A DNA stretch of 64,000 bases, from contig OZ253581.1 of assembly GCA_965263055.1 (NCBI GenBank), forward strand, positions 1,071,794-1,135,793, written 5' to 3'. The notes below the pieces were generated by a model. That model was given only the letters and a program-made list of their open reading frames with translations. It was not told the origin of the DNA and searched no databases. Numbering within the stretch: position 1 is the first letter of the stretch; every line of letters begins with the position of its first letter. The position numbers and the translations under genes were made by a program. Below, one piece after another: positions 19,979-39,943 of the stretch. This stretch comes from Vicinamibacterales bacterium. Lineage in GTDB: Bacteria; Acidobacteriota; Vicinamibacteria; Vicinamibacterales; UBA8438.

Positions 19979-20188
19979 ATGCCCATCCACCCCGAGCTGC
20001 TCGCGATCCTCGCCTGCCCCGCCTGCCGGACACCGGTCGCCCTGACGGCGGATGGCTCGGGCCTCCGTTGCGCCCGGTGCCGCCGCGTCTATCCGATCAA
20101 GGACGACATCCCGGTGATGCTCGTCGACGAGGCGACCATCGACGGAGCGCCGGCCGACCAGGCGACGGACGACACCTCGACGTCATGA
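19979..20188 (+). CDS. Trm112/UPF0434-family small zinc-ribbon protein
   Basis: 69 aa, LLAILACPACRTPV...LRCARCRRVYPIKDDIPVMLVDEA. Confidence 0.8.
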   Translation: MPIHPELLAILACPACRTPVALTADGSGLRCARCRRVYPIKDDIPVMLVDEATIDGAPADQATDDTSTS

Positions 20189-21408
20189 CGCTGGCGCGCT
20201 TCGAGACCGCCGCCTGGTGGCTTCTGCCGCTCTTTGTCTTCGTGCTGCCGCTCTCCATCGCCGCCTCCGGCATTCTGCTCACCGCGCTGCTCGCCGTCTG
20301 GATCGGTCTTCTCGTCACCGCGGGCGAGCGCCCTTCCGTCCCGCCGTTCTTCTGGCCGCTCGCCGCGTACGCCGGCTGGACGCTCGTCACCGTCCCGTTC
20401 TCGATCGATCCGGCGGCCAGCCTGATCGAATCGCGCGAGGTGTTGCTCTACCTGAGCGTGCCGGTCGTGTACCGCCTTGCGCGGGGCGAGCGCGCCTGGT
20501 CGATGACGAATGTCGTGCTGACGGCGGGGGCCCTCACCGCGGCGATCGGCATCGTGCAGTACGGCGTCCTGGAGTTCGACAACCTCGGGCGCCGGCCGAG
20601 CGGTTCGATGGGGCACTACATGACGTACGCCGGGCTGCTGATGCTCGCCATCGGCACCGCCGTGGCGCGCGTCGCGTTCGGCGCGCGCGATCGCCTCTGG
20701 GCGGCGCTGATGCTGCCGGCGCTGGTCGCGGCGCTCGCGGTGACGCTGACGCGCGGCGCGTGGATCGGCGCCGTCGCCGCGGTGGGCCTGCTGCTGGTGC
20801 TGCGCGACTGGCGTCTGCTGTTGCTGGCGCCGGTGGCCGCGGCCGGCCTCTACTTCGTTGCGCCTGCCGCCGTCACCGACCGCGCGCTGTCGATCATCGA
20901 TCCGGCGAACCCCACGAACCGCGACCGGGTGGCGATGCTGACGGTCGGCGCCGGCATGGTGCGCGACCATCCGCTCACCGGCGTCGGGCCGGAGATGGTG
21001 CTGCGACGCTACGGCGAGTACCGCCCGGACAACGCGGTGAACGACGTGAACCCGCACCTGCACAACGTCCCGTTCCAGATTGCCGCCGAGCGCGGGCTGC
21101 CGGCGCTCGCGCTCTGGGGCTGGTTCGTCGTCGCCGTCGTAATCGATCTCGCCCGGCGCTTCCGCCGGCCGGAGACGCGTACGCTCGCCGCCGCCGGTCT
21201 CGCCGCGGTCGCCGCGATGCTCGTCGGCGGCCAGTTCGAATACAACTTCGGCGACTCCGAGTTCCTGCTCCTCTTTCTCGTCCTGATAACGCTCCCGGCC
21301 GCCGCCAGCGCAACGCTCGGTGCGCCGGCCTCCCCTGGTGCGCCGGCCTCCAGGCCGGCATCGGGTACACCGGCATCCCCCGACACCCCGGCATCCCGCC
21401 CCCACTGA
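20185..21408 (+). CDS. O-antigen ligase / Wzy_C-family polytopic membrane protein
   Basis: Starts at ATG 20185, in ATGA overlap with the Trm112 stop. About 10 TM helices, with LTLTRGAWIGAVAAVGLL and a periplasmic-loop pattern typical of the Wzy_C family. The C-terminal PAS-rich tail is encoded by a repeat element. Confidence 0.7.
   Translation: MTLARFETAAWWLLPLFVFVLPLSIAASGILLTALLAVWIGLLVTAGERPSVPPFFWPLAAYAGWTLVTVPFSIDPAASLIESREVLLYLSVPVVYRLARGERAWSMTNVVLTAGALTAAIGIVQYGVLEFDNLGRRPSGSMGHYMTYAGLLMLAIGTAVARVAFGARDRLWAALMLPALVAALAVTLTRGAWIGAVAAVGLLLVLRDWRLLLLAPVAAAGLYFVAPAAVTDRALSIIDPANPTNRDRVAMLTVGAGMVRDHPLTGVGPEMVLRRYGEYRPDNAVNDVNPHLHNVPFQIAAERGLPALALWGWFVVAVVIDLARRFRRPETRTLAAAGLAAVAAMLVGGQFEYNFGDSEFLLLFLVLITLPAAASATLGAPASPGAPASRPASGTPASPDTPASRPH
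21319..21360. repeat. REP-like GC-rich repeat unit (inverse orientation relative to the 28855 copies)
   Basis: GGTGCGCCGGCCTCCCCTGGTGCGCCGGCCTCCAGGCCGGCA. It equals the reverse complement of 28855-28892 apart from a 3-nt insertion. It contains the palindrome GCCGGCCTCCAGGCCGGC. Confidence 0.7.
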
Positions 21409-21412
21409 CCTC

Positions 21413-23065
21413 TTGCGCCGACATCACGCCCTCGCGGCAGCGATCTTCCTGGCCCTCACCGTTCTCCACACCTGGCCGCTGGCGAGCGATCCGGCCCGGA
21501 TGTCACGCATCCACGACGACGAGTGGCTCAATGCGTGGGCGGTCTCCTGGGTCGCGCACCAGTTGCCGCGCGACCCGCTTCACCTGTTCGACGCCAACAT
21601 GTTCCATCCGGCCGATCAGGCGTTCAGGTACACCGAGCCGCTCGTTGTCCCGGCGATCATCGGCGCCCCGTTTCGCTGGCTCGGCGCCTCGCCCCTCCTG
21701 ACGCACAACCTGCTCGTCCTCGCCGGCTTCCTGCTGACCGCGCTGGCGATGTACCGGCTGGTGGTCCATTGGACCGGCGATCCCTGGAGCGGCATCCTGG
21801 CCGGCGCGCTGCTGACGTTCGGCACCGCGATGCTGACGCGCACCGCGCACATTCAGTTCCTGCATTTCTATGCGTTTCCCTTCGCGGTGCTGGCCCTCGA
21901 TCGGCTGCTGACCGGCGGGCGGGCGCGCGATGCGGCGTGGGTCGGCGTCTGGGTGATCGTCGCGGCGATGACCTCGGGGTATCTCGCCGTGCTCGTCGTG
22001 ACCACCCTCGGCGCCGCGTTCGTCATGCGGGCCGGCGACTGGTGGGGACGGCGCGGGGCCGGCATCGCCGCGCGGCTCGGCGCCGCGGCCGCCGTGACGG
22101 GAGCCGTGCTCGCCCTCCTGATGCGGCCCTACCTGGGGGCGGACCTGCGACGCAGCTCGGTCGTCGATGCCGACAGCATCGGCGCGTCCCTGCAGGCGTT
22201 CCTGCGGACCGCGGCCGATCTGCACTACGCGCTCTGGAGCGAGCGGTTCTGGAGCGGGGATGCGCCGAGCGCGATGTTCCCCGGCTTCGTCGCGATCGCC
22301 CTGGCGGGCGCCGCACTCGCCGCGCGCCGCCGCTTCGCGCCCCGCGGCATCCGGCGGATGCTCACAGGCATCGGCGCCACCGGCATCGTCCTCTCTCTCG
22401 GCATGCTGACCCCGGTCTACGGCGCGGTCGCCATCGTCATGCCGCCGCTCCTCGGCCTGCGCTCGCCGTCCCGCTTCGCGGTGCTGGCGGTCTTCGCGCT
22501 CGCGGCGCTCGCCGGCATCGGCTGGAGCGCCGTGCGCGCGCGCCTGAACCCGCGCTGGCACACCGCCGCCGCCGCGAGCCTCCTCGTGCTCGCCACCATC
22601 GAGAGCCTGCACGCGCCGATCCCGTACCGGCCGCTGCAGCGGAACGAATGGTATCCACCGATCTACCGGGCACTCGAGACGGCGCCGGCCGGACCGATCG
22701 CCGAGCTCCCGCTGCACCGACCCGGTTTGTTCCAGCAGAACGCGCGCTATCTGCTGGCCTCCACGCAGCACTGGCGGCCAATCCTCAACGGCTTCGGCGG
22801 GTTCCGTCCGGCCGGCTACGCGCTGGCCGCCCGGCGCCTCGCGACCTTCCCCTCCGACAGCGCGGTGGACTACCTGCGGTCCGTCGGGGTGCAGACGGTG
22901 ATCGTGCACGGCGACCGGTTGCGAACCTTCCAGTTCCACCGTCTGCTGCGGCTGGCAGCCCGCCAGCCGGACGTCCGGCTGGAGGCGGAAGTCGGCCGAG
23001 ACCTGGTCTACCGCATCGCGCCACAAGACGGCCGTGAAACGGTTACCATCCGGCCTGGTCGATGA
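21413..23065 (+). CDS. GT-C-like polytopic membrane protein (start uncertain: TTG 21413 or track start 21320)
   Basis: N-terminal TM followed by the acidic loop motif HDDEWLNAWAVSW. It has many TM helices and a C-terminal soluble region. Architecture resembles polyprenyl-phosphate-sugar-dependent glycosyltransferases. Confidence 0.5.
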   Translation: MRRHHALAAAIFLALTVLHTWPLASDPARMSRIHDDEWLNAWAVSWVAHQLPRDPLHLFDANMFHPADQAFRYTEPLVVPAIIGAPFRWLGASPLLTHNLLVLAGFLLTALAMYRLVVHWTGDPWSGILAGALLTFGTAMLTRTAHIQFLHFYAFPFAVLALDRLLTGGRARDAAWVGVWVIVAAMTSGYLAVLVVTTLGAAFVMRAGDWWGRRGAGIAARLGAAAAVTGAVLALLMRPYLGADLRRSSVVDADSIGASLQAFLRTAADLHYALWSERFWSGDAPSAMFPGFVAIALAGAALAARRRFAPRGIRRMLTGIGATGIVLSLGMLTPVYGAVAIVMPPLLGLRSPSRFAVLAVFALAALAGIGWSAVRARLNPRWHTAAAASLLVLATIESLHAPIPYRPLQRNEWYPPIYRALETAPAGPIAELPLHRPGLFQQNARYLLASTQHWRPILNGFGGFRPAGYALAARRLATFPSDSAVDYLRSVGVQTVIVHGDRLRTFQFHRLLRLAARQPDVRLEAEVGRDLVYRIAPQDGRETVTIRPGR

Positions 23066-25071
23066 GCGATCCGACACGCACGCGTGAACGGCGGGCGACG
23101 ATTGCCGTCTGCGCCGGCGTAACACTGCTCGCCGCCACGCTCGCATTCTGGTGGACCACGACGAACCGCTACCGGCTGACCGGCGACGAGCCGCACTACT
23201 TCATCCTGGCAGCCAGCCTGCTGCGGGACGGCGATGTCGACGTCCGCAACAACTTCGATGAGGATGCCGCCACGGGCGAGATCTATGGCCCGATTTCAGG
23301 CCGACACGTCCAGACGTACAACGGCCGAGAGTACTCGAATCATGCGCCCGGCCTGAGCGCTCTTCTGGTCCCTCCGTTTGCAGTCGGCGGGACGGTCGCA
23401 GGCCGGCTGCTGCTCTGTCTCCTGATCACGCCGATCCTCGGCTGGGCCTGTTGGCGCTGGCTCGAAGGACGCGCGCCACCGCGAGACGTAGCACTCGCTA
23501 TCGCAGGCGTACTGCTGTGTCCGGTGATACTGCTGGGATCCGGACAGGTGTACGGCGACCTCCTGGCCGGTGTCGTGATCGTGGGGCTGGCCGTCTGGTT
23601 GTGGAACCGTGTGGGTCGAGATGAGACAGCCGCGTCACAACGACGCTCGCCCCTAGCGTGGATGCTCTTCGGCTTGGTCGCAGGTCTCCTCCCCTGGCTG
23701 CACATGAAGTATCTCGGCGTCACCGCGCTGTTCGGTCTGCTCGCGGCTTGGCAGGTCTGGCGTGAACGACCGTGGCGCTACGTGAATGCACGCAGCCCTT
23801 GGTGGGGGTACGCTTCAGCGGGTGCATTTCTCCTGATTGGCCCAGCCACGTTCCTTGCCTCTCAGGTGGCAACCCATGGCCGACCGCTTGCCGGCTTGGG
23901 AGGTCAAATGACGGGAACCCCATACCTCCTGGCCTTGGAGTATCTGATCGGCGAACACCTCGATCAATCACACGGCCTCTTCTGGCACCAGCCGCTGTTC
24001 CTGTTCGGACTCATCGCGCTCGGCTGGATGATCAGAGTGCGGCATCCCCTCGTGATCCCTTGGCTACTCCTCTATGGCTCGCTGATGGCGCCGCCCGCGC
24101 TACTGGCCGAATGGGGTGGCATGCCACTTGGACGGTTCAACTGGGGCGGCATCTGGCTCTGGCTCCTTCCGATAGGCTGGTGGATGGGGGCGGAACGAGC
24201 CAACCTTGAACGATATGTCCGTCCGATGGTGCTGGCGGCGTTCGCGTACCAAGCGATTCTGGCGTGTCGCTGGATTCCGAATCCGACGGATCTCTTACTG
24301 TCTCCGCGATCGAGCCTGGTCTGGGGGCGCGATTCACTGTTCCCGCTGCCGGTCCGCTACATCTTTCCCCACTTCTATCTCAGCGCCGGAGACGGTTGGT
24401 GGGTCGTACGTTACCTGGAGTATCTGCCTAACTTGATCTGGGTGACAGCGGCCGTGCTGATGATCGTCACCGGATGGATGTGGAGCGCCGAAGGACGGCG
24501 TCGCCTGCGCCCGGTGTGGGTCAGCGGCGTTGCCGTGGCGGCGCTGCTGCTGCCGGTCGAACCAACCGCCGACCGGGAAGCACCACGTGACGACGGGCTT
24601 CATGACCCGATGGTGCAATCAATTGGGAGCACGTTCGCCCGCCGGTTCGAAGCGGAACGAATGACGCCGATGCAGGCAGCGTCCCGGACTACGCGTGAGG
24701 ACCCCAACGCCAGCGATGGGTACGCTCGGGACACTGCTGCAGCCTTCGAAAGTATGGACCGGTTCGTGGTTTTTGGCCCCTACCTGCGCCTCGATTCTGG
24801 CCGGTATCGCGTCGAGGCGACACTGCGCCTCGCCGAACCCACCGAGCTCAGAGTTGCCGGCCGGTTTGAAGTAACGGCATCGCGCGGGCGCACCGTCCTG
24901 GGCAGCGTCTTGGTCGCTTCCGACCGCCTGCCGACCGATGGCAGCTACACGAAGGTCGCGGTCAGCTTCGACGCCACGGAACCGTTGGACGATGTCGAGT
25001 TCCGGGTCGCCGCCACACCGGGGGTTGATCTCCTGATCGACTGCTTCGACCTGGTTCCGGTGCTGCCATGA
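23062..25071 (+). CDS. Large polytopic membrane protein of the GDEPHY-motif family, with C-terminal soluble domain
   Basis: 669 aa. The first loop is LTGDEPHYFILAASLLRDGDVDVRNNFDEDAATGEIYGP. It is a paralog of 26796-28739 and overlaps the upstream gene by 4 nt. Confidence 0.6.
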   Translation: MSDPTRTRERRATIAVCAGVTLLAATLAFWWTTTNRYRLTGDEPHYFILAASLLRDGDVDVRNNFDEDAATGEIYGPISGRHVQTYNGREYSNHAPGLSALLVPPFAVGGTVAGRLLLCLLITPILGWACWRWLEGRAPPRDVALAIAGVLLCPVILLGSGQVYGDLLAGVVIVGLAVWLWNRVGRDETAASQRRSPLAWMLFGLVAGLLPWLHMKYLGVTALFGLLAAWQVWRERPWRYVNARSPWWGYASAGAFLLIGPATFLASQVATHGRPLAGLGGQMTGTPYLLALEYLIGEHLDQSHGLFWHQPLFLFGLIALGWMIRVRHPLVIPWLLLYGSLMAPPALLAEWGGMPLGRFNWGGIWLWLLPIGWWMGAERANLERYVRPMVLAAFAYQAILACRWIPNPTDLLLSPRSSLVWGRDSLFPLPVRYIFPHFYLSAGDGWWVVRYLEYLPNLIWVTAAVLMIVTGWMWSAEGRRRLRPVWVSGVAVAALLLPVEPTADREAPRDDGLHDPMVQSIGSTFARRFEAERMTPMQAASRTTREDPNASDGYARDTAAAFESMDRFVVFGPYLRLDSGRYRVEATLRLAEPTELRVAGRFEVTASRGRTVLGSVLVASDRLPTDGSYTKVAVSFDATEPLDDVEFRVAATPGVDLLIDCFDLVPVLP

Positions 25072-25093
25072 CGTGGCGTCTCGCCAGCCCCTT

Positions 25094-25987
25094 CTAGATC
25101 GGTTCGACGTAGACGGTCAGGACACGCACGCCCAACTCGCGCGCGTCGTCCCCCACGCCCAACTCGGAGGGGACGAAGGTCTGATCGACGAGCAGCTCCA
25201 GTCGGACCACGTCGTCGGATCCGAGCTCGGCCGTCGTGAGCGTTCGATCAATCATCACGGGGGCGGAGGTGCGGAGGGACAGTTCCTCCAGCATCTGCTC
25301 GCCGATCCGGAGACTGAACTGCTGCGGCGTATCGAACACATCGGGTCGTCCTGCCACCTCCAGCATCAGGCGCGCGTCGCCCCTGGGATTCTGGAAAGAG
25401 ACCACGCCGTGGCCGGTAGACCAGCGCCAGGATACCTCGCCGTTCGGCTGAGACTCGACCCCGTGCCAGCCTTCCTCGTAGACCAGGAAGCTGCTCTCGT
25501 GTTGCGGCGTGAACGTGATGGAGGCGGTGCGGTAGGCGTTCTGGCCGATATGGTCACCTGCGAGCGCCAACCGCTCACCGGTCGACGCCAGGTGCAACCC
25601 GACGGCAATCTCTGCTTCCCCGATATACGGATAGAGCGGCGCCATGATCCGGCGCGTGTACCAGATGGTCTGTCCCGGCTCCCACTCGCTCGTCGGCGTC
25701 GCCGGCCGATGATCGTCACTCCAGATCCGCTCGCCGTTGTTGTCGAGCACCTGGGCGAAGACGGTGTAGTCGTCCGTCATCGGCACGAGGTCCGGCAATA
25801 CATCGAATCTAAACGTCATCTCGAGCGGTCCGCCGACCGGCACGCTCGTCCGGTCCAACTGCAGGTTGACGCGCGCTACCGGCGAACCGGACGCTCCGCC
25901 GCCACAGGCGGTGGCGGGCAGTAGCGACGCCGCCAGCACGATCGCTGCGGCTACGGTCCGTAGTCCGCTGATGAAGTGGTGCCGCAT
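25094..25987 (-). CDS. Lipoprotein of unknown function
   Basis: Start at MRHHFISGL (cat 25985-25987) with lipobox LLPATAC. The beta-rich body has no recognised motif. It is the last gene of a minus-strand GT-C/GT2 operon. Confidence 0.55.
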   Translation of the reverse strand: MRHHFISGLRTVAAAIVLAASLLPATACGGGASGSPVARVNLQLDRTSVPVGGPLEMTFRFDVLPDLVPMTDDYTVFAQVLDNNGERIWSDDHRPATPTSEWEPGQTIWYTRRIMAPLYPYIGEAEIAVGLHLASTGERLALAGDHIGQNAYRTASITFTPQHESSFLVYEEGWHGVESQPNGEVSWRWSTGHGVVSFQNPRGDARLMLEVAGRPDVFDTPQQFSLRIGEQMLEELSLRTSAPVMIDRTLTTAELGSDDVVRLELLVDQTFVPSELGVGDDARELGVRVLTVYVEPI

Positions 25988-26053
25988 CAACAAGGAGCAT
26001 ACCATTGGCTCCACGACGCTGGAGCTTGTGAAACCAAGGGATCGCGCGCGACG

Positions 26054-26734
26054 TCAGAAGCGGTACTTCAGAAGTGTCCAGACCGCCTGGAAGAAGTCCT
26101 TCCAGGAGATCTTCTTCCCCTCCGCAAAACTCCGCCCCTGGTACCGGATTGGCACCTCGTGAATCGGGATCCCGCGCTTCAGGATCTTGGCGGTAATCTC
26201 CGGCTCGAAATCGAAACTGTTCGACACGGTCTCGATCTGCTGCAGTAACGTCCGGTCAATCAGCTTGTAGCACGTCTCCATGTCGGTAAGCGACGAGCCG
26301 TAACAGCAGTTGGTAAGCCAGGTCAGCAGGCGGTTCCCGACGCGGTGACGGATCGCCATAGCCGGGCGCCCGGCCGCTAGACGCGAGCCGTACACCACCT
26401 GCGCCTTCTCCTTCACCGCAGCGTCGAGCAGCCCAGCGTAGTCGGCCGGATCGTACTCGAGGTCGGCATCCTGCACGATCACGTAGTCGCCGGTGGCGCG
26501 AGCGAAACCGGCCCTGAGCGCCGCCCCCTTCCCCTGGTTGGCGGGCTGCAGCAGCAGGGTCATCCCGTCCCCCTCGCGCGCCGCCCGCTCCCGCAGCAGC
26601 TCGCGCGTCCCGTCGGTGGAGCCGTCGTCCACGACGATCACCTCCGTATCCAGATCGACCGCCGCAACACGGTCGAGCAGTTCGATGATCGTCGCCCGTT
26701 CGTTATAGACCGGGATCACAATGGAAAGACGCAT
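26054..26734 (-). CDS. Family-2 glycosyltransferase, polyprenyl-phosphate sugar synthase-like (Dpm1/ArnC/GtrB type)
   Basis: From [26 protein letters not shown]...[11 protein letters not shown]...FDFEPE. About 226 aa and soluble. Start is cat 26732-26734. Confidence 0.85.
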
Positions 26735-26795
26735 GGCCAGGAGTGCAAGACGCCGCAGACGGTCTACTGCCCCCGTGGTGACATCGAAGACCGGA

Positions 26796-28739: not shown

Positions 28740-28843
28740 TACGATAGGATACCGTGGCCTATGATCCACCGCTAGCCAGCCAGCGGTGGGGGTGCACGTC
28801 CCTCCGAGGCGGTGAAAGAGGGGCAGGTGCTGCCGTAAGGGAG

Positions 28844-29527
28844 ATGCACCTTCATGCCGGCCTGGAGGCCGGCGCACCAGGGGCCGGCGCACATCACGGC
28901 CGGTCTGGAGGCCGACGCACCAGGGGCCGGCGCACCGTCGCGGTCGCACTGGCCGCCCTTGCCCTGACCGGCGCGCGTAGTGCGGCAGGCGCGGAGTCGT
29001 GGAGCGCCACTTCCGGGGACGTGCACGTTCGCTGCCGCCTCACGGTCGGCGGCAGCTTCGATGTAGTCACATCCGCACTCTCCGGAACGCTTGAGCGCGC
29101 GACGCCGGACGGCGCGGACTACTCCGGCGAACTCCGGGTAGACCTCGCGACACTCGACAGCGGCATCGGGTTGCGGAACTCCCATCTCCGCGACAACTAC
29201 CTCGAGGTGGAACGAGGCCCGGAGTTCCGGCATGCCGTGCTCTCGGACATCGTGCTCGACGATCCGCTGCCCGCCAGCGCCGGCCGCCACGAGACGGCGT
29301 TCTCGGGAACACTCTCCCTGCACGGCGTGGAGCGCCCGGTCGAAGGCGAGGCGGAGCTGCGCCGCCGCGACGGTCGGATGCAGGTGGAGGCGACGTTCTC
29401 CATCAGCCTGGAAGCGTTCGACATCCCGCCGCCGCGGTACCTGGGTGTCGGCGTCCGCGACACCGTGGAGATCACCGTCACGTTCGATGCGGCGCGCGCT
29501 GATGAGCCGTCGGGCGCCACGCCATGA
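28844..29527 (+). CDS. YceI-like periplasmic (polyisoprenoid-binding-like) protein
   Basis: DLATLDSGIGLRNSHLRDNYLEVERGPEFRHAVL and the overall beta-barrel pattern are typical of the YceI family. The N-region of the signal peptide is encoded by two tandem repeat units, so the start is uncertain. Confidence 0.65.
   Translation: MHLHAGLEAGAPGAGAHHGRSGGRRTRGRRTVAVALAALALTGARSAAGAESWSATSGDVHVRCRLTVGGSFDVVTSALSGTLERATPDGADYSGELRVDLATLDSGIGLRNSHLRDNYLEVERGPEFRHAVLSDIVLDDPLPASAGRHETAFSGTLSLHGVERPVEGEAELRRRDGRMQVEATFSISLEAFDIPPPRYLGVGVRDTVEITVTFDAARADEPSGATP
28855..28935. repeat. Two tandem REP-like units (28855-28892 and 28898-28935)
   Basis: TGCCGGCCTGGAGGCCGGCGCACCAGGGGCCGGCGCAC and GGCCGGTCTGGAGGCCGACGCACCAGGGGCCGGCGCAC, separated by 5 nt. 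Confidence 0.7.
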
Positions 29528-30684
29528 CCTGGTCCGGAGGAAGGCGCGCCGCCGCGCGCATCGCGCTCACCGCCGCGTCGTTGCTGGCGGCATGGGGCGC
29601 CGGGCCCGTGTTCGCCGAACCGACGTTCCTGTCCAGGCAGTACCCACGCTGCACCGCCTGTCACTACTCGGAGTCGGGCGGCGGGCTGTTGACGCCGTAC
29701 GGACGGTCGCTGTCGCGGGAGGAGATCTCGACGTTCGGCCGCCAGGGCGCCGGCGTGGACCCGACGCAGCCGGCCGCCGACGAGGAAGGCTTCCTCTTCG
29801 GCGCCCTCGGGAGCGAGAGCCCGCTGCAGCTCGGCCTCGACATCCGGCCCTCGCATCTGGGCGTCAACGTGCCCGGCCGAACCCTGGCCGACCGCAATTT
29901 CCTCATGACCCTCGATCTGCAAGCGGCCTGGCGTCGCGACCGCTGGACCGCCTACGGCACGGTCGGACGCCAGCCCCGTGCCAGCGGCGGCCGGGTGGTG
30001 TCGTACGAGCACTGGGTCTCCTACCAGGTTGCCGACGGCGTGAGCGTGCGCGGCGGACGGTTCCTGCCGGCCTACGGCGTCCGGTTCGCCGACCACACGT
30101 CGTTCACCCGCGAGCGGCTCGACCTCGCCCAGGACGATCAGATCTACGGCGTCGAGGTGGGCGTGTCGACCGATCGGACGCTGCTACAGGTATCCGCCGG
30201 CCCGGGACGCGCCGAATCACTGATCGACGGCGACGGACGTAGCGCGTTCACCGGAAGCGGCCGGTTCCAGTTCGACGTCGGACCCCGCACCGTCCTCGCG
30301 GGATCCGTCCGCCACCGCGGCGCGTCGGACGCCGGCCCCTCACGCACCGGAGGCGGGCTCTCCTTCGGCTACGCCCCGACCGCCTGGCTCACCACCTGGA
30401 CGCATGCGGACGTTCAGCACCAGGCGCTGCGGACGAGCAGCCGCTCCTACATCGTCGCCAACCAGACGTCGGTCGAGGCGGTGCGCGGCCTCTGGCTCCG
30501 CGTGTCGCCGCAGGTGCGCTGGACGGATCGCGACCCGCGGGGCGAAATCCGCCGCATGGTCTACGGCCTGGACTTCTATCCACGCACCCACTGGCACGTC
30601 AACGTCTCGTACTACCGCGACCACCTCCCGTTCAACGGCCAGCGCGTGCAGACGCTGCTTGCCCAGTTGCACCTCTATCTGTAA
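29524..30684 (+). CDS. Putative outer-membrane beta-barrel protein with N-terminal CxxCH heme-attachment motif
   Basis: 386 aa. A signal peptide (…GAGPVFAEP) is followed by YPRCTACHYSESGGGLLTPYGR. After that come many alternating-hydrophobicity strands, ending LLAQLHLYL. It overlaps the YceI gene by 4 nt. Confidence 0.5.
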   Translation: MTWSGGRRAAARIALTAASLLAAWGAGPVFAEPTFLSRQYPRCTACHYSESGGGLLTPYGRSLSREEISTFGRQGAGVDPTQPAADEEGFLFGALGSESPLQLGLDIRPSHLGVNVPGRTLADRNFLMTLDLQAAWRRDRWTAYGTVGRQPRASGGRVVSYEHWVSYQVADGVSVRGGRFLPAYGVRFADHTSFTRERLDLAQDDQIYGVEVGVSTDRTLLQVSAGPGRAESLIDGDGRSAFTGSGRFQFDVGPRTVLAGSVRHRGASDAGPSRTGGGLSFGYAPTAWLTTWTHADVQHQALRTSSRSYIVANQTSVEAVRGLWLRVSPQVRWTDRDPRGEIRRMVYGLDFYPRTHWHVNVSYYRDHLPFNGQRVQTLLAQLHLYL

Positions 30685-30695
30685 CGCTAGCTTCC

Positions 30696-31166
30696 GTGAC
30701 GACAACCCTGCGCTGCTTCCTATCACTTCCGCTGGTTCTGGTTCTCGCGCTGGGTGTCGCCGCCTGCGGTGCGGATTCCCCGCCCGCGCCGACCACCCCG
30801 ACGCCGACTACCCCGACTCCGCCGCCACCGGCGCCGGATCCCAACGAATTGATGCCCACGTTGTCGAGCATCCAGAGCCTCGTGTTCACCCCGCAATGCG
30901 TCATGTGTCACGGGGACGACGTAGCGGAGGCCGGTCTCAATCTGGAAGAAGGGACGTCGTTCGCGTCGCTCGTCAACGTGCCCAGCACTCAGGTGGCGCT
31001 CGATCTCGTAGAGCCGAACGACGCGGAGAACAGCTATCTGATCCACAAGCTCGACGGCCGCGACGGCATCGTCGGCGACCGGATGCCCTACGATGCCGAG
31101 TTCCTCTCCGAGGCGGACATCGACGTCATCAAGCAGTGGATCAAAGACGGCGCGCAGGACAACTGA
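30696..31166 (+). CDS. Lipoprotein with single CxxCH; Planctomycete-type cytochrome c (PSCyt1)-like domain
   Basis: 156 aa with lipobox LGVAAC and a Pro/Thr linker. It then reads IQSLVFTPQCVMCHGDD..AGLNLEEG...NSYLIHKL...DRMPYDAEFLSEADIDVIKQWIKDGA. Confidence 0.6.
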   Translation: MTTTLRCFLSLPLVLVLALGVAACGADSPPAPTTPTPTTPTPPPPAPDPNELMPTLSSIQSLVFTPQCVMCHGDDVAEAGLNLEEGTSFASLVNVPSTQVALDLVEPNDAENSYLIHKLDGRDGIVGDRMPYDAEFLSEADIDVIKQWIKDGAQDN

Positions 31167-31257
31167 CCGCCGAGCTGCACCACTCACGCAAACTCATGTG
31201 ATTATTGTTGCTGCTTGCGCTGGTTCAGCACAGGCCCCGCACCACAAGTTAGCGTAG

Positions 31258-33210
31258 ATGGCACCGCTGCAACGTGCTCACGTCGTCGCCTTTGGCGCCG
31301 TTCTACTGGTCGCTATCTGGCTGCGCGCACCGCAGATCTCCACAGGCCTACCATACTTCTATGATGCGGACGAAACGACCCAGTTCAACCGGTTGGTGCG
31401 GATGGTCCAGACCAACGACTACCACCCTTACTTCTTCCATTACCCGTCGCTGGACCTCTACTTGCGGATGCCCGCGTTGGCGGGTGGCTTCCTGTGGTCG
31501 GCACGAGAGGGCGACATAAGTTCCATTCACGAGATCGTCAGGATCGACATTATCGCACCCGACCGGATCGCCAGAACGGCATCGCATCCGCGCATCGTCA
31601 TGTGGGTGCGCTCCGTCACTCTGTTCTTCAGCCTGCTGATGCTCGTTGCGACGGTAGGAATTGCGCGCAGGCTCACTGCCTCACCTTGGGTGGCGGTCCT
31701 AGCGGGGGTGTTCGTGGCGTGCTCCCCACCGCTGATCGAGGACTCGGAAAAGATCGGCGTCGACACGCTGATGGCAGCAATGTGCGTCGTGACCGTGTGG
31801 CTGTCGTTGCGCACCATGGAGCAGCCGAGCGTGGGGCGAGCGGCACTGGCAGGACTAGCGGCGGGGCTCGCCATATCGAGCAAGTACAACGCCATGCCGA
31901 TCGTCATCGTGCCAGCGCTGGCTTGCCTGCTCTCGGTCCGCTGCTCGCCTGGCATGCTGACGGCGGCGTTGGGTCTACCGGCAGTCGGGTTTTTCGCCGG
32001 GACTCCGTACGGTTTGTTCTATCCTGCCGACCTCCTCAACGGAATGGCGGACGGGATCACGTACTACTCACTCCCTGGAAGCTCCGGTCCGCGCATCGAG
32101 CCTGGCTGGCCGCACGCAGCGCGCTTTCTCGGTTGGTTGTCAAGGAATGCGATGGGTGTCTCAGTCACGCTGGCCGGCATCACCGGCGCCGCCCTGCTGC
32201 CGATCGCCGACCGACACCGCCGCGCGGCGATCGTGATGCTGGCGTTCCCACTGGCGTTCGGCGTGTTTATGGTCAATCAGCACGCCGCCTTTTTCCGCAA
32301 CATGCTCGTATTGATCCCGTTCTTCGCCGTTGCCGCAGCATGGGCGGCGGAGCGGCTGGCAAAGCACCTGTCCCGGCAACCGTGGATGCCGTTTGGGGGA
32401 AGGGCGGTCATGCCAATGCTCGTCTTCCTCCTTCTCGCACAGCCGGTAGTCATGGCTATCAACCTGTGGCAGGAGACAGGGACGGCGCCTGAGAGCCGAC
32501 GCCTGGTCAGCGCGTGGCTGGCAGAGGCCGTTAGTCCGGAGACGGAAACGGCAATCACCGAAGAACTGCGGCTACCAGCGGCAGACTATCGTACTACGGG
32601 CATCACGATGGCACGCACCGATCAGTTGACCGATCCGAAGCGGCTGTTTCTGGACGGCTATGACCGAATTGTCGTCGGTCCGAACTTCGAGCTCCCCGCG
32701 CACGCCACGGACCTGTTGCAGGTACACCGGATCTTTGCGGGCGATCGCTACCAGACCTACATTCCGCGCAATCCGGAAATAACGATCTACAACCTGCCTG
32801 CCACGCTCGCGTACCACCCAGGGGTGCGTGAGCTGGTCGCACGCGACCCACGCTACGAGCTGACCGACGGCGTCGTGCGCACGCGCATCGCGCGGCTCGC
32901 GCTCGATGGTCTGGGCTCGGGAACAGTCCAAACGCCGCACTCAACCATCACACTTGATCTCCGCACGCCGTGGCCGTCGCAGTCCTGTCGACTCGAGCTG
33001 CCCCGTTGGCAATCACCCGAGCTTTGCGCTGACCTCCCGCCCGGACACCGGGAGACGCGATCCGTCACGATCCCCACGGATGTACTGGCCGGACAGAGTT
33101 GGTTGTGGATCGTCGTCCGCCGCGTCCACCTGGATCCCGATTCCACGCGGGAGCGCAGGCTCCGACTCGGGATGGTGGTGGACGCGCTGACCGTAAGTCC
33201 GGCGCCGTAG
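31258..33210 (+). CDS. GT39/ArnT-like (GT-C) polytopic glycosyltransferase-like protein
   Basis: 650 aa. The N-terminal TM is followed by the loop motif YFYDADETTQFNRLVRM. There are about 11 TM helices and a roughly 230-aa C-terminal soluble domain. Confidence 0.55.
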   Translation: MAPLQRAHVVAFGAVLLVAIWLRAPQISTGLPYFYDADETTQFNRLVRMVQTNDYHPYFFHYPSLDLYLRMPALAGGFLWSAREGDISSIHEIVRIDIIAPDRIARTASHPRIVMWVRSVTLFFSLLMLVATVGIARRLTASPWVAVLAGVFVACSPPLIEDSEKIGVDTLMAAMCVVTVWLSLRTMEQPSVGRAALAGLAAGLAISSKYNAMPIVIVPALACLLSVRCSPGMLTAALGLPAVGFFAGTPYGLFYPADLLNGMADGITYYSLPGSSGPRIEPGWPHAARFLGWLSRNAMGVSVTLAGITGAALLPIADRHRRAAIVMLAFPLAFGVFMVNQHAAFFRNMLVLIPFFAVAAAWAAERLAKHLSRQPWMPFGGRAVMPMLVFLLLAQPVVMAINLWQETGTAPESRRLVSAWLAEAVSPETETAITEELRLPAADYRTTGITMARTDQLTDPKRLFLDGYDRIVVGPNFELPAHATDLLQVHRIFAGDRYQTYIPRNPEITIYNLPATLAYHPGVRELVARDPRYELTDGVVRTRIARLALDGLGSGTVQTPHSTITLDLRTPWPSQSCRLELPRWQSPELCADLPPGHRETRSVTIPTDVLAGQSWLWIVVRRVHLDPDSTRERRLRLGMVVDALTVSPAP

Positions 33211-33955
33211 CGTTCGCTGGCGACCGAGTTCTCGATAGTGCCGTCCACGCCGCGACCGTTGTACCTCGCCATTGAGGATGGCCAGAACGCGACGACCGGG
33301 CGAAGCGCAAATAGCGTCGGGCGTCAGGCGGCCAGGGAGGTCGAGCAGGTCTAATTCTGGGTGACTATGGATTTAATGCCAGCCTATCCGGACTTTCCGT
33401 CGCGGCGGCGGCCATTCGCCGAGCGTCCGCCAGTACGACACGGCAAGTCATTTATATAGTTTGAGGTAGTCAGGCCAGTACACCCACGCTCCCCATTCTG
33501 TACCCCACAAGGTGAACGGGACCGCATAGTGCCACAGACGCCTTCCGCGAGCAAACCAGACCTGGGCAACCGTGGTACAGGGATCCAGATCAACCGCGTC
33601 GATCCGCCAGATCCGAACCACTGCGACAGACGACGACGCGGCAACATCGAGTCAGAACGGATCCACTCTTGAGGATCCGAGCTCACTCACCAGATCACGA
33701 AAGCACACGAAAACCGGCCACGGAAAAAGCTGGCTCCTGACCGGTTATAGTGTCAGGAAGCAGCTTACTCAACGTGCCACATTGGGACTGGCAGGGGGCT
33801 CCGCCCCTCGACCCCCGGACAGAGATACCGTGCGGGCTGGGGATTCAGGCCCGGCCGTCGCCGGGTCGCTGAGGTTGCCACAAATGGGAAATTTACGGTG
33901 GCCACCAACATGGTCACCCGGCGTTGCACCGCCGTTGCGGCCGGCGCCGGGTTCG

Positions 33956-35098
33956 ATGGCCTCGGCAGCCCGTTCGTGGTCGTCGAGCCGCCACACGAGC
34001 GGGGGACGCCGCGCGGTCGAAGTCGCCGACAGGGCCACCCATCAGAAGCGCTACGGTCCGGCGTCGCGGCTGCTGCATGCGCTGGCGCTCGAGCGCCCCT
34101 TCGTCGCGGAGACCTGGCTCGACGTCGAGGAACTGCTGCACGGCCGCAATCTACCCGCAGCGGACGGCGGCGCGCATGTCTTCGTTACCGGTTTGGCACG
34201 CGCCGGCACCACGATGTTGATGCGGCTGCTACACGCCTCGGGCCGGTTCGCGTCGCTCAGCTACCGCGACATGCCATTCGTCCTGGCGCCGAACCTCTGG
34301 GCCTCGCTCACGCGACGGTCGCGGCGCGACCTCCCGGCGCAGGAACGGGCGCACGGCGACGGTGTCGTCGTCGATGCCGACAGTCCGGAAGCGCTCGACG
34401 AGGTCTTCTGGCGCGTCGTCTGCGGGAGCGACTACATCGGACCGAACACGCTGTCGCCGATGGAGGCGGACCGCGACGCGATGGATCGCTTCCGCCGCTA
34501 CGTCGCCCTGGTTCTGAAGCGGTATGGGTCCGACCGATACCTGTCGAAGAACAACAACAACCTGCTGCGGCTGCCGTCGTTACGCCGCGCGTTCCCGAAT
34601 GCGCACTTGGTTGTCCCGTTCCGCGATCCGCTGCGCCAGGCGGCGTCACTCCTGACGCAACACCGGCGCTTCTCCCAACAGCAGCGGGACGATCCGTTCA
34701 CCCGCCGCTACATGGCCTGGCTCGTGCATCACGAGTTCGGTCTCGACCACCGCCCGTTCGCGTTTGCGGGCAGCAACGCGCCCGCAGATGCGGACCGCGA
34801 TGACCCGGCGTACTGGCTGCAGCAGTGGGTCGCCGCCTACTCGCACGCGCTGGAGTGCGCGGACGAGACCGCCATCAATCCGATATTCGTCAGCTACGAA
34901 TGGATTTGCGCCGAGCCGGAGCGGGCTTGCGAGGCGCTGGCGTCACGTCTCGATCTTCCCCCGACGGCGCTCACGTTCGCGCCCCGCCGCTCCCCGACCG
35001 ACACGCCGGCAATCGCCGACCGCCCGCTGGTCGGCCGGGCGTGGGAGCTGTACGCGGCGCTCGACGAGCGGAGCCGGCGAGATGCGGCGACGCCATAG
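33956..35098 (+). CDS. Sulfotransferase-family protein
   Basis: PAPS 5'-phosphosulfate loop VFVTGLARAGTTMLMRLL and a later RYLSKNNNN segment. Start chosen at ATG 33956, within the longer track ORF (33572), so it is uncertain. Confidence 0.65.
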   Translation: MASAARSWSSSRHTSGGRRAVEVADRATHQKRYGPASRLLHALALERPFVAETWLDVEELLHGRNLPAADGGAHVFVTGLARAGTTMLMRLLHASGRFASLSYRDMPFVLAPNLWASLTRRSRRDLPAQERAHGDGVVVDADSPEALDEVFWRVVCGSDYIGPNTLSPMEADRDAMDRFRRYVALVLKRYGSDRYLSKNNNNLLRLPSLRRAFPNAHLVVPFRDPLRQAASLLTQHRRFSQQQRDDPFTRRYMAWLVHHEFGLDHRPFAFAGSNAPADADRDDPAYWLQQWVAAYSHALECADETAINPIFVSYEWICAEPERACEALASRLDLPPTALTFAPRRSPTDTPAIADRPLVGRAWELYAALDERSRRDAATP

Positions 35099-35158
35099 CG
35101 CTGTTCAACTGGGGGCGTGCTATATCATGGGCGCGTCTTGTGCATCGCAGATCGTCTA

Positions 35159-36812: not shown

Positions 36813-36868
36813 CAGTCGGTCTCGTCGGTGTCGAGGGGTTTCAGGGGGATCTCCAGGATCTCGGCAAC

Positions 36869-36877
36869 TTTTTTTTA
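36869..36877 (-). promoter_or_regulatory. Programmed -1 frameshift slippery motif (A AAA AAA G) of the IS3 element, preceded by T giving an in-frame TAA
   Basis: Minus strand reads GCC CTC TAA AAA AAA GTT in the orfA frame. The orfB frame is CCT CTA AAA AAA AGT. Confidence 0.5.
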
Positions 36878-37300: not shown

Positions 37301-37352
37301 CCATCAAACCCTCCCCCGCCCCGACACTAATCTCAATAGGGAGGTTGTCTCA

Positions 37353-37772: not shown

Positions 37773-37820
37773 CGCAAACGTGTGTCCAAGAAACCGCGTG
37801 CGGTACAGATGAAGCATAAA

Positions 37821-39939: not shown

Positions 39940-39943
39940 GGGT

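Follow-up and report, generated by a model that had tools for sequence, protein, structure and literature searches.

In the three-component ArnC/ArnT and GtrA/GtrB/Gtr* systems, a GT2 polyprenyl-phosphate-sugar synthase is combined with a GT-C glycosyltransferase carrying an acidic motif in its first loop, and action is at the periplasmic face (lipid A Ara4N addition; O-antigen glucosylation). In mycobacteria (Emb/Aft, with DprE1/DprE2) and in Pseudomonas aeruginosa (TfpW; bioRxiv 10.1101/2020.04.19.049825), a polyprenyl-phosphate sugar is the donor from which several paralogous GT-C enzymes, some with carbohydrate-binding modules (CBMs), assemble a polymer. The GT136 family belongs to a three-component system for pentofuranose side chains, which may include auxiliary epimerases; its member ORF12 of Citrobacter youngae O1 has ~650 aa, a GT-C fold of ~11 TM helices, a small helical domain after TM1, a C-terminal CBM, and the essential residues D31...Y35 and R349 (PMC11127046). 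Teichoic-acid glycosylation of the YfhO/CsbB type again pairs a GT2 lipid-phosphate-sugar synthase with a GT-C enzyme.

Here we describe a locus from the chromosome of a member of the Vicinamibacterales (Acidobacteriota), contained in a 64,000-nucleotide stretch hereafter called the window, in which a conserved operon encodes an O-antigen-ligase-like protein and several membrane glycosyltransferases, which probably act at the periplasmic side to decorate a glycan of the envelope.

Organization of the locus

The conserved operon lies between TPR, lolB-like, ispE and prs genes and purH, in the order Trm112-like, A (Wzy_C), B, one to three copies of C, F, YceI, haem-motif protein and cytochrome c. 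In the window the layout is A>B>C> <D<E<F G>H>I>J>K>, with D, E and F on the opposite strand:

19979..20188, plus strand: Trm112p/UPF0434-like zinc-ribbon ORF, 69 aa, first gene of the conserved operon
20185..21408, plus strand: A, O-antigen-ligase/polymerase-like polytopic protein, ~10 TM helices (Pfam Wzy_C, E = 1.1e-20)
21413..23065, plus strand: B, GT-C-fold protein of YfhO / PTPS_related / DUF6311 type (predicted structure, family matches)
23062..25071, plus strand: C, from a large 'GDEPHY' GT-C family lacking a Pfam model, ~11 TM helices (predicted structure, motif)
25094..26014, minus strand: D, probable lipoprotein (signal peptide and ...LPATAC), last gene of the F-E-D block
26054..26734, minus strand: E, GT2 of the polyprenyl-phosphate glycosyltransferase class (ArnC/DPMS/GtrB/PpgS-like), 226 aa (Glycos_transf_2, 5e-35)
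26796..28739, minus strand: F, paralogue of C (40% identity) with GDEPHY and the domain layout of C (motif, alignment), head of the F-E-D block
28754..29527, plus strand: G, YceI-like periplasmic protein (Pfam YceI, 6.5e-16)
29524..30684, plus strand: H, secreted protein, 386 aa, with an N-terminal CTACH (CXXCH) haem-binding motif
30696..31166, plus strand: I, small cytochrome c lipoprotein (CVMCH; PSCyt1 1.3e-4, Cytochrom_C 3e-4)
31258..33210, plus strand: J, GT39/GT83-type (PMT/PMT_2) lipid-carrier-dependent glycosyltransferase (PMT_2 5.6e-9, PMT 7.8e-8)
~33956 (probable start) to 35098, plus strand: K, cytoplasmic PAPS-type sulfotransferase (Sulfotransfer_3)
35117..35428, plus strand: small membrane protein, 103 aa, that travels with K-type sulfotransferases (homology)
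35694..39972, no strand: IS-damaged zone between K and purH (IS and gene fragments), comprising the next five features
35694-37300, minus strand: IS3-type transposase
36885-37772, plus strand: rve fragment
37821-38731, minus strand: carbamoyltransferase pseudogene, C-terminus, frameshifted (Carbam_trans_C 1.7e-37 and 1.4e-22, in two pieces)
38668-39150, plus strand: weakly supported GT-C N-terminal fragment (PMT E = 0.009)
39210-39972, plus strand: IS110 fragments
39944-41578, minus strand: purH, conserved right flank in relatives

The stop codon of the Trm112-like ORF overlaps the ATG of A (ATGA), and this ORF is 100% identical to a gene of the nearest relative (L005; loci are cited by such numbers) that matches PF03966. 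The start of B is uncertain (21320 GTG, 21338 GTG or 21413 TTG), and the true start of G is probably near 28880. The 2.4 kb at 28754-31166 encode the YceI-like protein, the CXXCH protein and the cytochrome c lipoprotein; for the CXXCH protein (H), neither Pfam nor PDB gave a match. A preliminary description of this DNA had listed an O-antigen-ligase-like protein and four polytopic proteins with the motifs HDDEW, GDEPHY (twice) and YDADET, a soluble Dpm1/ArnC-type GT2, a lipoprotein (D), a PAPS-type sulfotransferase and, downstream, a carbamoyltransferase pseudogene, and all of these were recovered. Its statement that GT4/GT-B enzymes, Wzx and ABC exporters are absent also held for the interval 20-35 kb. 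An NDP-sugar cassette is located in the window at 58.8-62.7 kb; its counterpart in relatives lies next to GT2/GT4/GT9 genes as well as C-like and J-like ones, which leaves the preliminary reading against classical O-antigen synthesis tentative.

A conserved core with variable cargo

The core order is kept in L001-L003, L005 and L007-L012, with gene boundaries that overlap or nearly abut. The 15 kb are made up of conserved core genes (A, B, C, F, G, H and I), which recur across Vicinamibacterales species, and of variable cargo, and do not form one co-inherited island as first proposed. Orthologues of A are 80-98% identical in L001-L012 and those of H 79-93%, G is present at all orthologous loci, B is likewise a core gene, C occurs in one to three copies, and I is duplicated in several relatives. 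F is 97% identical to its counterparts in L005 and L137. L022/L023 carry copies at a separate location that are 81-83% identical to it, and in other relatives F lies within the operon on the plus strand and is 56-58% identical. The YceI-like protein, H and the cytochrome c are conserved like the glycosyltransferases, yet have no place in the mechanism proposed below.

D and E are confined to the closest relatives. D, for which Pfam, NCBIfam and PDB searches gave no match, was found only in L005 and L137 (97% identity); L137 has an intact E (98.7%), L009 carries the gene too (89%), and L005 has lost most of it (~500 bp). J is a variable member: it follows a TonB-dependent receptor gene in L006, is flanked by H and I in L007/L008 and L010, and is absent from L002, L009, L011 and L012. 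The H-I and I-purH junctions vary in content: L007 has J there, L137 a GT1/methyltransferase insert, L006 a TonB-dependent receptor gene and J, and the window strain K with IS elements.

The glycosyltransferases and their closest relatives

The acidic loop-1 motifs of B, C, F and J lie 10-20 residues past the first predicted TM helix. Pfam classified A (Wzy_C) and J (PMT/PMT_2), whereas the two other polytopic families, B and C/F, had no match in the window. For B and C the GT-C similarity proposed earlier came instead from Foldseek comparison of AlphaFold models.

In B, HDDEW is at residue 65, in the first periplasmic loop, and D67 is invariant among 32 aligned family members. B of the window falls below every Pfam threshold, but family members match PTPS_related (8/32), YfhO (3/32), DUF6044 and DUF6311. 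The AF2 model (pLDDT 82, pTM 0.84) matched membrane proteins at E = 1e-8 to 1e-3, among them STT3 (1e-8 to 5e-8, TM-score 0.5-0.57), DPY19 (8e-8), ArnT (4e-5), PglB (4e-4) and AglB; the predicted fold of B is therefore GT-C and resembles STT3/DPY19/ArnT. Together with its C-terminal soluble domain, this recalls the YfhO/CsbB type, although the host is not known to have teichoic acids.

The GDEPHY motif of C is at residue 41, and G41-D42-E43-P44-H45-Y46 is invariant in 33 family sequences. Searches of C against Pfam, NCBIfam and PDB sequences gave no match. In its AF2 model (pLDDT 77), the membrane part matched EmbA best (2.9e-5), with further matches to AglB, ALG9, PimE and AftB, as well as Pmt4 (TMt 0.51) and ArnT (0.44), with generally modest TM-scores of about 0.3-0.5; residues ~527-669 form a predicted CBM6-like beta-sandwich (5.8e-5 to CBM6). 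The C and J families can also be aligned in register (hhalign E = 1.4e-4). J itself has YDADET at residue 35 in loop 1, D38-E39 is invariant in its family (22 sequences), and source databases label homologues as 'GT39' or 'phospholipid carrier-dependent glycosyltransferase'. C and its paralogue F thus resemble, in the models, the GT-C enzymes Emb/Pmt4/ArnT with an added CBM6-like C-terminal domain.

Compared by description, C and F share the architecture of GT136 ORF12, with D42...Y46 of C against D31...Y35 and R358 against R349; ORF12, however, is labelled EpsG-like in CDD, whereas C-family members match zero Pfam models, and the window lacks a PRPP-dependent synthase, a MATE transporter and a DprE1/DprE2 gene. 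DprE1-like (PDB 2.6e-70) and DprE2-like gene pairs, which may be likened to the auxiliary epimerases of GT136 systems, adjoin C-family genes in 12 loci, one of which (L015) is the orthologous TPR-Wzy-C locus in a different species of Vicinamibacterales. This link and the EmbA match recall the mycobacterial systems; on the other side, the acidobacterial host has an outer membrane, Emb, Aft and TfpW show no similarity in sequence, and C and F have ~650 aa against ~1,100 aa for Emb. Over ~300 residues, distant C-family members also match the Leptospira model NF047440 ('LA_3751/LA_3752 family putative glycosyltransferase'), at 2e-14 to 2e-7 and with 30-53 bits, far under the cut-off of 200; C and F of the window did not match it at E <= 0.01.

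E is a soluble or peripheral protein with zero TM helices and an amphipathic aromatic C-terminus. ArnC was its closest PDB match (3.6e-17), followed by DPMS (1.6e-14) and GtrB (4e-8), and its NCBIfam matches, all under curated cut-offs, were AglJ (2e-33), ArnC (3e-22), Dol-P-hexose transferase (3e-21) and PpgS (1e-16). This, together with the structural match of both B and C to ArnT, makes ArnC/ArnT and the Gtr systems close parallels. The locus differs from them in having four GT-C enzymes of three lineages rather than one and a Wzy_C protein at the operon head, in lacking GtrA, ArnE/F or a MATE flippase, and in that E, dispensable in relatives, has none of the C-terminal TM helices seen in ArnC and GtrB. 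The nearest relative has lost E and most relatives lack it, so that E cannot be an obligatory donor synthase.

Proposed mechanism and alternatives

The best overall explanation, to which we give a probability of roughly 0.6, is a core operon whose GT-C enzymes use lipid-phosphate-sugar donors to extend an envelope glycan, with strain-specific remodelling. Folds, motifs, family relationships, synteny and variability come from the data above; the donor type, topology and joint action are what we infer. Polyprenyl-phosphate monosaccharides would be made at the cytoplasmic face, with E as one source in the window strain, and flipped to the periplasmic face by a putative flippase; within the locus, no GtrA, SMR or MATE flippase was found. 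There, B, C, F and J would each add sugar through the conserved loop-1 Asp/Glu, the CBM-like domain of C and F would hold the polymer, and A would ligate or polymerise an Und-PP-linked chain. In the window strain the locus is remodelled: C copies have been lost, F is part of an inverted F-E-D block and J has been gained. The acceptor could be LPS (core or O-chain), a guess to which we give somewhat less than even odds.

Neighbourhoods of C-family genes bear on the donors. In fetched flanks of up to 10 kb, E-like GT2 genes (26-50% identity) lie near C-family genes in 14 other loci, and the frequent adjacency of distant C-family genes to DprE1/DprE2 or E-like GT2 genes supports lipid-phosphate-sugar donors. 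Pfam counts of immediate neighbours of distant members are diverse, with GT2 in only 4/113, which weighs against the proposal. B-like genes adjoin distant C-family genes in 15 further loci, and one C-like gene (42% identical) is clustered with FdtA, hexose 2,3-dehydratase, DegT, two GT2s, GT4, a J-like gene and GT9.

The locus might instead glycosylate periplasmic or outer-membrane proteins, with A as a PglL/PilO-type O-oligosaccharyltransferase (Wzy_C is found in O-OTases too), B as an STT3/PglB-like or DPY19-like enzyme, and the co-encoded YceI, H or cytochrome c possibly as acceptors. The best structural matches of B, oligosaccharyltransferases and a C-mannosyltransferase, fit this, as do the membership of J in the PMT/PMT_2 protein-mannosyltransferase superfamily and the secreted proteins conserved within the operon. 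We nonetheless consider it unlikely: no WWDxG-type motif was found in the B sequence, whose relatives are YfhO and PTPS_related (teichoic acids or no assigned role) and not STT3, the CBM-like domain in C and F speaks for a polysaccharide as acceptor, and the GT9 gene beside the distant C-like gene is of heptosyltransferase type, an LPS context.

We assign an equally low probability to conserved synteny plus an insertion hot-spot lacking joint function, which would make A-B-C-F a glycan module and G-H-I a redox or polyisoprenoid-binding module unrelated to it, with D-E, J, K and the IS zone each inserted independently. The lower GC of C, D, E, F, I and J (0.64-0.67, against 0.71-0.72 in A, B and H) suggests a mosaic and not a co-evolved unit, the junctions are variable, and YceI of E. 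coli is usually linked to cytochrome b561. Against this stand the overlapping or near-abutting genes from A to I in relatives, the recurrence of B-like and E-like genes beside C-family genes in unrelated genomes, and the junction cargo, whose repeatedly glycan-related nature (J, GT1, methyltransferase) suggests a shared functional context.

Sulfotransferase K and the IS-damaged zone

The reading frame of K is open from 33572, and homology starts near 33965-33990 (Sulfotransfer_3 matches the full ORF at E = 1.8e-16 and 33965-35098 alone at 9.6e-17), with GxxRxGTT and RDP motifs and no signal peptide or TM segment found. As PAPS is cytoplasmic, K, which has no export signal, cannot be the enzyme that sulfates a periplasmically made product. 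K is strain-specific and lies outside the conserved locus: none of the 85 loci screened contained it, among them every orthologous locus whose flanks were recovered and all C-family loci, and in the window it abuts IS elements, with ~750 bp of non-coding DNA between it and J. Even the nearest of its metagenome relatives do not exceed 47% identity over most of their length, and relatives in other metagenomes adjoin arylsulfotransferase-like (Arylsulfotran_2) genes and small membrane proteins, not glycosyltransferases. Of the periplasmic glycosylation followed by sulfation in the preliminary description, glycosylation at the periplasmic face therefore stands as the best reading, and the sulfation step is unsupported.

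A single island that glycosylates and then sulfates a periplasmic acceptor, with D, E, J and K integral alongside the GT-C genes, is consequently very improbable given this record of K and the deletion of E in L005, even though all the genes are adjacent in the window and the sulfotransferase and carbamoyltransferase remnants beside GT-C genes recall glycan-decorating sets such as NodH/NodU.

Under the core-operon reading, K and the small membrane protein are a separate sulfotransferase module at an IS-ridden junction, where remains of a carbamoyltransferase and GT-C cassette also persist; the fifth GT-C fragment reported there earlier is present, with weak support (PMT). The 103-aa protein is homologous to small ORFs beside K homologues in L112 (2e-9) and L124 (3e-8).

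Gene layout of the locus

Genes in the window, whose GC content is about 68%, were called on the basis of codon-position GC, followed by homology. The features of the region and its flanks are as follows:

19979-20188, plus strand: Trm112-like zinc-ribbon ORF, 69 aa
20185-21408, plus strand: A, Wzy_C protein
about 21413-23065, plus strand: B, predicted GT-C protein, YfhO-like
23062-25071, plus strand: C, predicted GT-C protein with CBM-like domain
25094-26014, minus strand: D, probable lipoprotein
26054-26734, minus strand: E, GT2 (Pfam Glycos_transf_2, 5e-35)
26796-28739, minus strand: F, paralogue of C
28754-29527, plus strand: G, YceI (Pfam, 6.5e-16)
29524-30684, plus strand: H, secreted protein with a CTACH haem motif
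30696-31166, plus strand: I, cytochrome c lipoprotein
31258-33210, plus strand: J, PMT_2 protein (Pfam)
about 33956-35098, plus strand: K, Sulfotransfer_3 protein (Pfam)
35117-35428, plus strand: small membrane ORF that accompanies K-type genes
39944-41578, minus strand: purH, reached by an IS-damaged zone that extends from the side of the small membrane ORF

The preliminary description had listed an O-antigen-ligase-like protein, four polytopic proteins, a GT2, a lipoprotein and a sulfotransferase, together with acidic first-loop motifs, and these genes and motifs were confirmed by Pfam matches and by the sequence itself. The four motifs (HDDEW in B, GDEPHY in C and F, YDADET in J) lie exactly where they had been placed, each 10-20 residues past the first hydrophobic helix of a protein with a positively charged N-terminus. 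The description had left out that D, E and F lie on the minus strand, that the genes for YceI, H and cytochrome c fill 2.4 kb of the "island", and that the small Trm112-like ORF stands at the head of the operon. The IS-damaged zone holds Carbam_trans_C in two frameshifted pieces (Pfam, 1.7e-37 and 1.4e-22), IS3- and IS110-type transposase fragments (Pfam), and a PMT-like N-terminal fragment at 38668-39150 with a weak Pfam match (E = 0.009). Scanning for promoters and terminators turned up nothing stronger than in shuffled sequences.

On the other side, the minus strand at 17063-20033 carries a secreted TPR protein (649-692 aa) and a 289-aa lipoprotein ahead of ispE and prs. The TPR protein was considered as a part of the glycan system and rejected, because its transcription runs divergently and its neighbours are the lolB-like lipoprotein, ispE and prs. 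We take this order to be the lolB-ispE-prs arrangement, a widespread housekeeping one familiar in Proteobacteria, and both genes are probably housekeeping and outside the glycan system.

A conserved operon with variable cargo

Homologous loci were found in Vicinamibacterales and in "Acidobacteria bacterium" MAGs. The orthologous locus is flanked on one side by minus-strand prs, ispE, the lolB-like lipoprotein and the secreted TPR protein, and on the other by purH, selA and apbE. Between them the core order is Trm112-like, Wzy_C, B, two or three copies of C, F, YceI, H and one or two genes for cytochrome c; in the relatives all of them share one strand, with overlapping or near-abutting boundaries (L001-L003, L007-L012 and others). 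The remaining genes are distributed unevenly. D was seen only in L005, the nearest relative of the window (96% nucleotide identity), and in L137. In L005, C occurs in three copies and D-(E)-F is inverted as in the window, but about 500 bp of E have been deleted; E is intact in L137 (98.7% identity), where a 4-kb insert with GT1 fragments and a methyltransferase separates H from I, and in L009 it (89% identity) adjoins a plus-strand F. Orthologues of J lie between H and I in L007 and L008 and past a TonB-dependent receptor gene in L006, and are missing from several other loci.

The co-occurring set is therefore limited to A, B, C, F, G, H and I. Co-occurrence of the whole gene set in relatives, expected of an island, held for these seven genes and failed for D, E, J and K: D and E are confined to L005, L137 and L009, J is variable, and K was never found. 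Composition differs as well, GC being 0.71-0.72 and GC3 about 0.9 for A, B and H, with housekeeping flanks up to 0.73, and GC 0.64-0.67 for C, D, E, F, I and J; this mosaic across 23062-33210 would fit exchange between paralogues or replacement by horizontal transfer within a conserved operon. Given the patchy co-occurrence and these differences in composition, the region is a conserved chromosomal operon with variable, partly mosaic cargo, and not a single co-inherited 15-kb unit.

Gene turnover at the locus is rapid. The E deletion in L005 (18653-18754, against 26185-26687 in the window) leaves D and F intact, and L005 has two additional C paralogues with respect to the window. The H-I junction has received glycan genes repeatedly (J; GT1 plus methyltransferase). 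The genes for YceI (G), H (386 aa, N-terminal CXXCH, without an assigned family) and the one or two small lipoproteins of cytochrome c type equal the glycosyltransferase genes in conservation (L001-L012).

The ligase-like protein, the GT2 and the polytopic proteins

Protein A matched Wzy_C with 74.4 bits (Pfam, cut-off 31.7, E = 1.1e-20), has about 10 hydrophobic segments, and scored far under the NCBIfam cut-offs for RfaL (15 bits) and IctB (43 bits). A belongs to the O-antigen ligase/Wzy_C family, within which ligase, polymerase and O-OTase roles are indistinguishable.

For E, the preliminary description had proposed a polyprenyl-phosphate-sugar-synthase-like GT2, and its best named relatives all fall in that class. 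The top NCBIfam matches were AglJ, ArnC, Dol-P-hexose transferase and PpgS; those in the PDB were ArnC (3.6e-17), Pyrococcus DPMS (1.6e-14) and GtrB (4e-8), and the sequence contains DDGSTD and DAD motifs. The GT-A catalytic domain of E is thus closest to the polyprenyl-phosphate glycosyltransferases of GT2 (ArnC/DPMS/GtrB/PpgS). Since every match lies under its equivalog cut-off (the top score is 116 bits, against 325 for the AglJ cut-off), the sugar is not assignable from the sequence of E. The protein has no TM helices and an aromatic, amphipathic C-terminal end, and would be peripheral at the membrane. PpgS and human DPM1 are likewise peripheral proteins.

Pfam and NCBIfam searches were empty for B, C, F, D and H (for C and F, at E <= 0.01 in Pfam), and none of B, C and F had a match among PDB sequences; PDB searches with J, H and D gave chance-level matches only (E >= 0.36), and an exact-sequence look-up of J and H returned no record. 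J itself exceeded the Pfam gathering thresholds of PMT_2 (36.9 bits, threshold 26.1, 5.6e-9) and PMT (32.6 bits, threshold 22.7, 7.8e-8), and D38-E39 are invariant in its family. Homologues of B and C were collected and aligned, and the structures of both proteins were predicted.

The model of B (pLDDT 82, pTM 0.84) matched GT-C enzymes exclusively at E <= 1e-3, with TM-scores of 0.4-0.57: STT3 (1e-8 to 5e-8, TM-score 0.5-0.57), DPY19 (8e-8), AglB, ArnT (4e-5) and PglB (4e-4), with Pmt4 (1.5e-3) and ALG9 (4.9e-3) slightly beyond that threshold. D67, in the first loop after TM1, is invariant in the B family. Among 32 B homologues, matches at E <= 0.1 were found to PTPS_related (8), YfhO (3), DUF6044 (2) and DUF6311 (1), which we take to be members of the Pfam GT-C clan; the window's own B had none. 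Precomputed matches to PF19830 are recorded for many B homologues.

The model of C (pLDDT 77) gave matches to EmbA (2.9e-5), AglB, ALG9, Pmt4 (TMt 0.51), ArnT (0.44), PimE and AftB for its membrane part, all membrane-protein matches being GT-C enzymes with TM-scores of about 0.3-0.5, and its residues from about 527 to 669 matched CBM6 modules (5.8e-5). D was considered as a free-standing copy of this CBM-like domain and rejected, a profile comparison between D and the C family having found no such relation. Profile comparison by hhalign gave a weak, in-register match between the C family and the PMT_2 family of J (E = 1.4e-4, probability 53%, 203 columns) and no relationship between the C and B families. 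The GT-C likeness that had been suspected for the polytopic proteins was thus found in the models of B and C, and B, C, F and J probably all belong to the GT-C fold superfamily, B and C by predicted structure, F by its 40% identity to C, and J by its PMT and PMT_2 matches.

A widespread family related to C and F

In the C/F alignment, G41-D42-E43-P44-H45-Y46 is invariant, as are D56, D58, N63, E73, H82 and R358. When a profile of this alignment was searched, the number of cluster representatives was 4,554 with E <= 1e-3, of which 2,442 had E <= 1e-10 and 330 had E <= 1e-30, pointing to a sizeable family for which Pfam has no model. A scan of GTDB genomes for the family returned 500 coding stretches. 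Among them are distant members (21-27% identity) from Pseudomonas, Yersinia, Undibacterium, Thiothrix, Xanthomonadaceae, Leptospira and Subtercola, which retain GDEPHY and have no Pfam match; their matches to NCBIfam NF047440 ("LA_3751/LA_3752 family putative glycosyltransferase") are weak, and they are named hypothetical proteins at NCBI and, for two of them, "RgtA/B/C/D-like domain-containing" in UniProt.

A reduced-set neighbour survey around C-family genes gave small, diverse counts. B-like genes lie nearby in 15 loci, E-like GT2 genes (26-50% identity) in 14, and pairs of DprE1-like and DprE2-like genes in 12, one of these DprE1-like proteins matching DprE1 in the PDB with 2.6e-70. In L015, another Vicinamibacterales species among those 12, the pair directly follows the orthologous TPR-Wzy-C locus. 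DprE1 and DprE2 produce decaprenyl-phospho-arabinose for GT-C arabinosyltransferases (PMC11127046), so the contexts of the C family speak for donors of the lipid-phosphate-sugar type and for a setting in polysaccharide or LPS synthesis. The DprE1/DprE2-like neighbours suggest polyprenyl-P-arabinofuranose-type donors for the C-family "hypothetical proteins" beside them and, together with the E-like GT2 neighbours, lend contextual support to B, C, F and J being enzymes that would use polyprenyl-phosphate-linked sugars.

The DprE1/DprE2-like genes lie a few kb from the C-family gene in L054, L042, L044, L045, L046, L048, L052, L059, L062, L076, L014 and L015, which come from Proteobacteria and two Acidobacteria; the pair is directly upstream of the C-family gene in the Yersinia/Undibacterium group, the region in Yersinia sp. 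HM-2024 (L054) being 7874-11767. Neither a blastn search of this DprE1-DprE2-C-like region against E. coli genomes nor tblastn searches of C and its Yersinia homologue against phages gave a match.

Another C-like gene (42% identity) clusters with FdtA, hexose 2,3-dehydratase, DegT, a methyltransferase, two GT2s, a GT4, a J-like gene and a GT9. The window itself carries the same NDP-sugar cassette at 58792-62725 (FdtA-like isomerase, NDP-hexose 2,3-dehydratase, GFO/IDH/MocA oxidoreductase and DegT aminotransferase) that is 70-80% identical to genes of L004 directly adjoining a cluster of C-like, GT2, GT4, J-like and GT9 genes, and a second glycan cluster may lie just past the right end of the window.

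All components of the locus fall in known superfamilies with a known logic. Among the closest functional analogues are the three-component systems ArnC/ArnT and GtrA/B/V, mycobacterial Emb/Aft with DprE1/E2, Pseudomonas TfpW (bioRxiv 10.1101/2020.04.19.049825) and the GT136 pentofuranose system (PMC11127046). In the last, ORF12 of C. youngae combines a GT-C enzyme with a CBM at its C-terminus, and its residues D31, Y35 and R349 are essential (PMC11127046). C and F share with it a GT-C core and a C-terminal CBM-like domain (527-669), and their invariant D42, Y46 and R358 parallel the three essential residues. This likeness, drawn from the published features of ORF12, is one of resemblance only, and the EpsG-like label of ORF12 in CDD counts mildly against its being a member of the C family. 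Characterisation of a single C/F protein could establish a new CAZy family or widen GT136, and better annotation of many "hypothetical proteins" would follow.

Proposed function and alternatives

The reading we favor, with a probability of roughly 0.6, is decoration of an envelope glycan in the periplasm by GT-C enzymes that draw on lipid-phosphate sugars. Such sugars would be synthesized in the cytoplasm, in the window partly by E, and moved to the periplasmic face by a putative flippase, where B, C, F and J would transfer them onto the glycan while the CBM-like domains of C and F grip the polymer; A would ligate or polymerise a Und-PP-linked chain. LPS is our tentative guess for the acceptor, because A is WaaL-like and relatives show a GT9 context.

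A protein glycosylation system would account for the resemblance of B to oligosaccharyltransferases, which is confined to the level of the predicted fold: the WWDxG motif of the C-terminal periplasmic domain of STT3, PglB and AglB was sought in the sequence of B and is absent, and the sequence relatives of B are YfhO-like, making this alternative unlikely. We consider it equally improbable that the genes have no joint function and that synteny and an insertion hot-spot alone keep them together.

YceI, H and cytochrome c have no place in any of these models. A broader proposal, for which we hold out little expectation, couples them functionally to an operon with which Vicinamibacterales would assemble or lengthen an envelope polysaccharide, for the most part at the periplasmic face, through successive GT-C transfers from lipid-phosphate sugars, with C and F representing a widespread CBM-bearing GT-C family. 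If it were true, the operon would be the Gram-negative counterpart to arabinan assembly in mycobacteria, and YceI (a polyisoprenoid-binding fold), H and cytochrome c might handle the polyprenyl carrier or redox-modify the glycan.

A single island in which periplasmic glycosylation is followed by sulfation, as the preliminary description had it, is very unlikely: PAPS is cytoplasmic and neither a signal peptide nor a TM segment was found in K, so that sulfation after periplasmic glycosylation fails topologically.

Envelope glycans of Acidobacteriota, which are abundant in soil and sponges, are almost uncharted. The locus offers a conserved gene set in which a WaaL/Wzy-like protein is paired with GT-C enzymes of three lineages. 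Beyond removing the unsupported link between periplasmic glycosylation and sulfation, the analysis flags a GT-C family with a CBM-like domain and no Pfam model, some members of which stand beside DprE1/DprE2 homologues in Proteobacteria and Acidobacteria.

The sulfotransferase and its module

K matched Sulfotransfer_3 with 61.5-62.4 bits against a cut-off of 27 (Pfam; 1.8e-16 for the full ORF and 9.6e-17 for 33965-35098) and contains GLARAGTT and FRDP...S, the 5'-PSB and 3'-PB motifs of PAPS-dependent sulfotransferases. It is separated from J by about 750 bp, abuts IS elements and was absent from all 85 loci screened, the region downstream of the locus in L005 lying outside coverage. Among metagenome proteins, the identity of its nearest relatives to K does not exceed 47% over most of their length. 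An Arylsulfotran_2 neighbour was confirmed for at least six K homologues (1e-36 to 1e-48), and in eight cases the gene ahead encodes a membrane protein of about 118-125 aa and overlaps the sulfotransferase start. From its absence from the loci and these neighbours, K is part of a module separate from the glycosylation locus.

Of that module the window retains only K and the small membrane ORF at 35117-35428, which differs from the 118-125-aa type and is also found beside K homologues in two loci; homologues of the arylsulfotransferase and of the 'DHWKEK' small protein were searched for in the window and not found. The conserved K-type modules (window 33956-35428; L089, L100, L101, L102, L106, L111, L112, L113, L124 and L128) come from metagenomes with GC from 31% to 72%, and several of their 118-125-aa proteins carry the 'DHWKEK' motif. 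Arylsulfotran_2 proteins are of the ASST-like, PAPS-independent type, and a cytoplasmic PAPS enzyme and an aryl sulfotransferase of periplasmic type could together relay sulfate from one side of the membrane to the other.

Other observations in the window

A 943-aa ORF at 49624-52455, which adjoins the Nqr operon, has an odd codon-position profile (GC2 0.40), its sole match being a repetitive, coiled-coil-like one to BLOC1_2. On the minus strand at 52894-55798, a TonB-dependent-receptor-like gene is apparently split into two ORFs, one of 459 aa with CarboxypepD_reg and the beginning of the barrel, the other of 569 aa with the remaining barrel, and may be a frameshift or a pseudogene.
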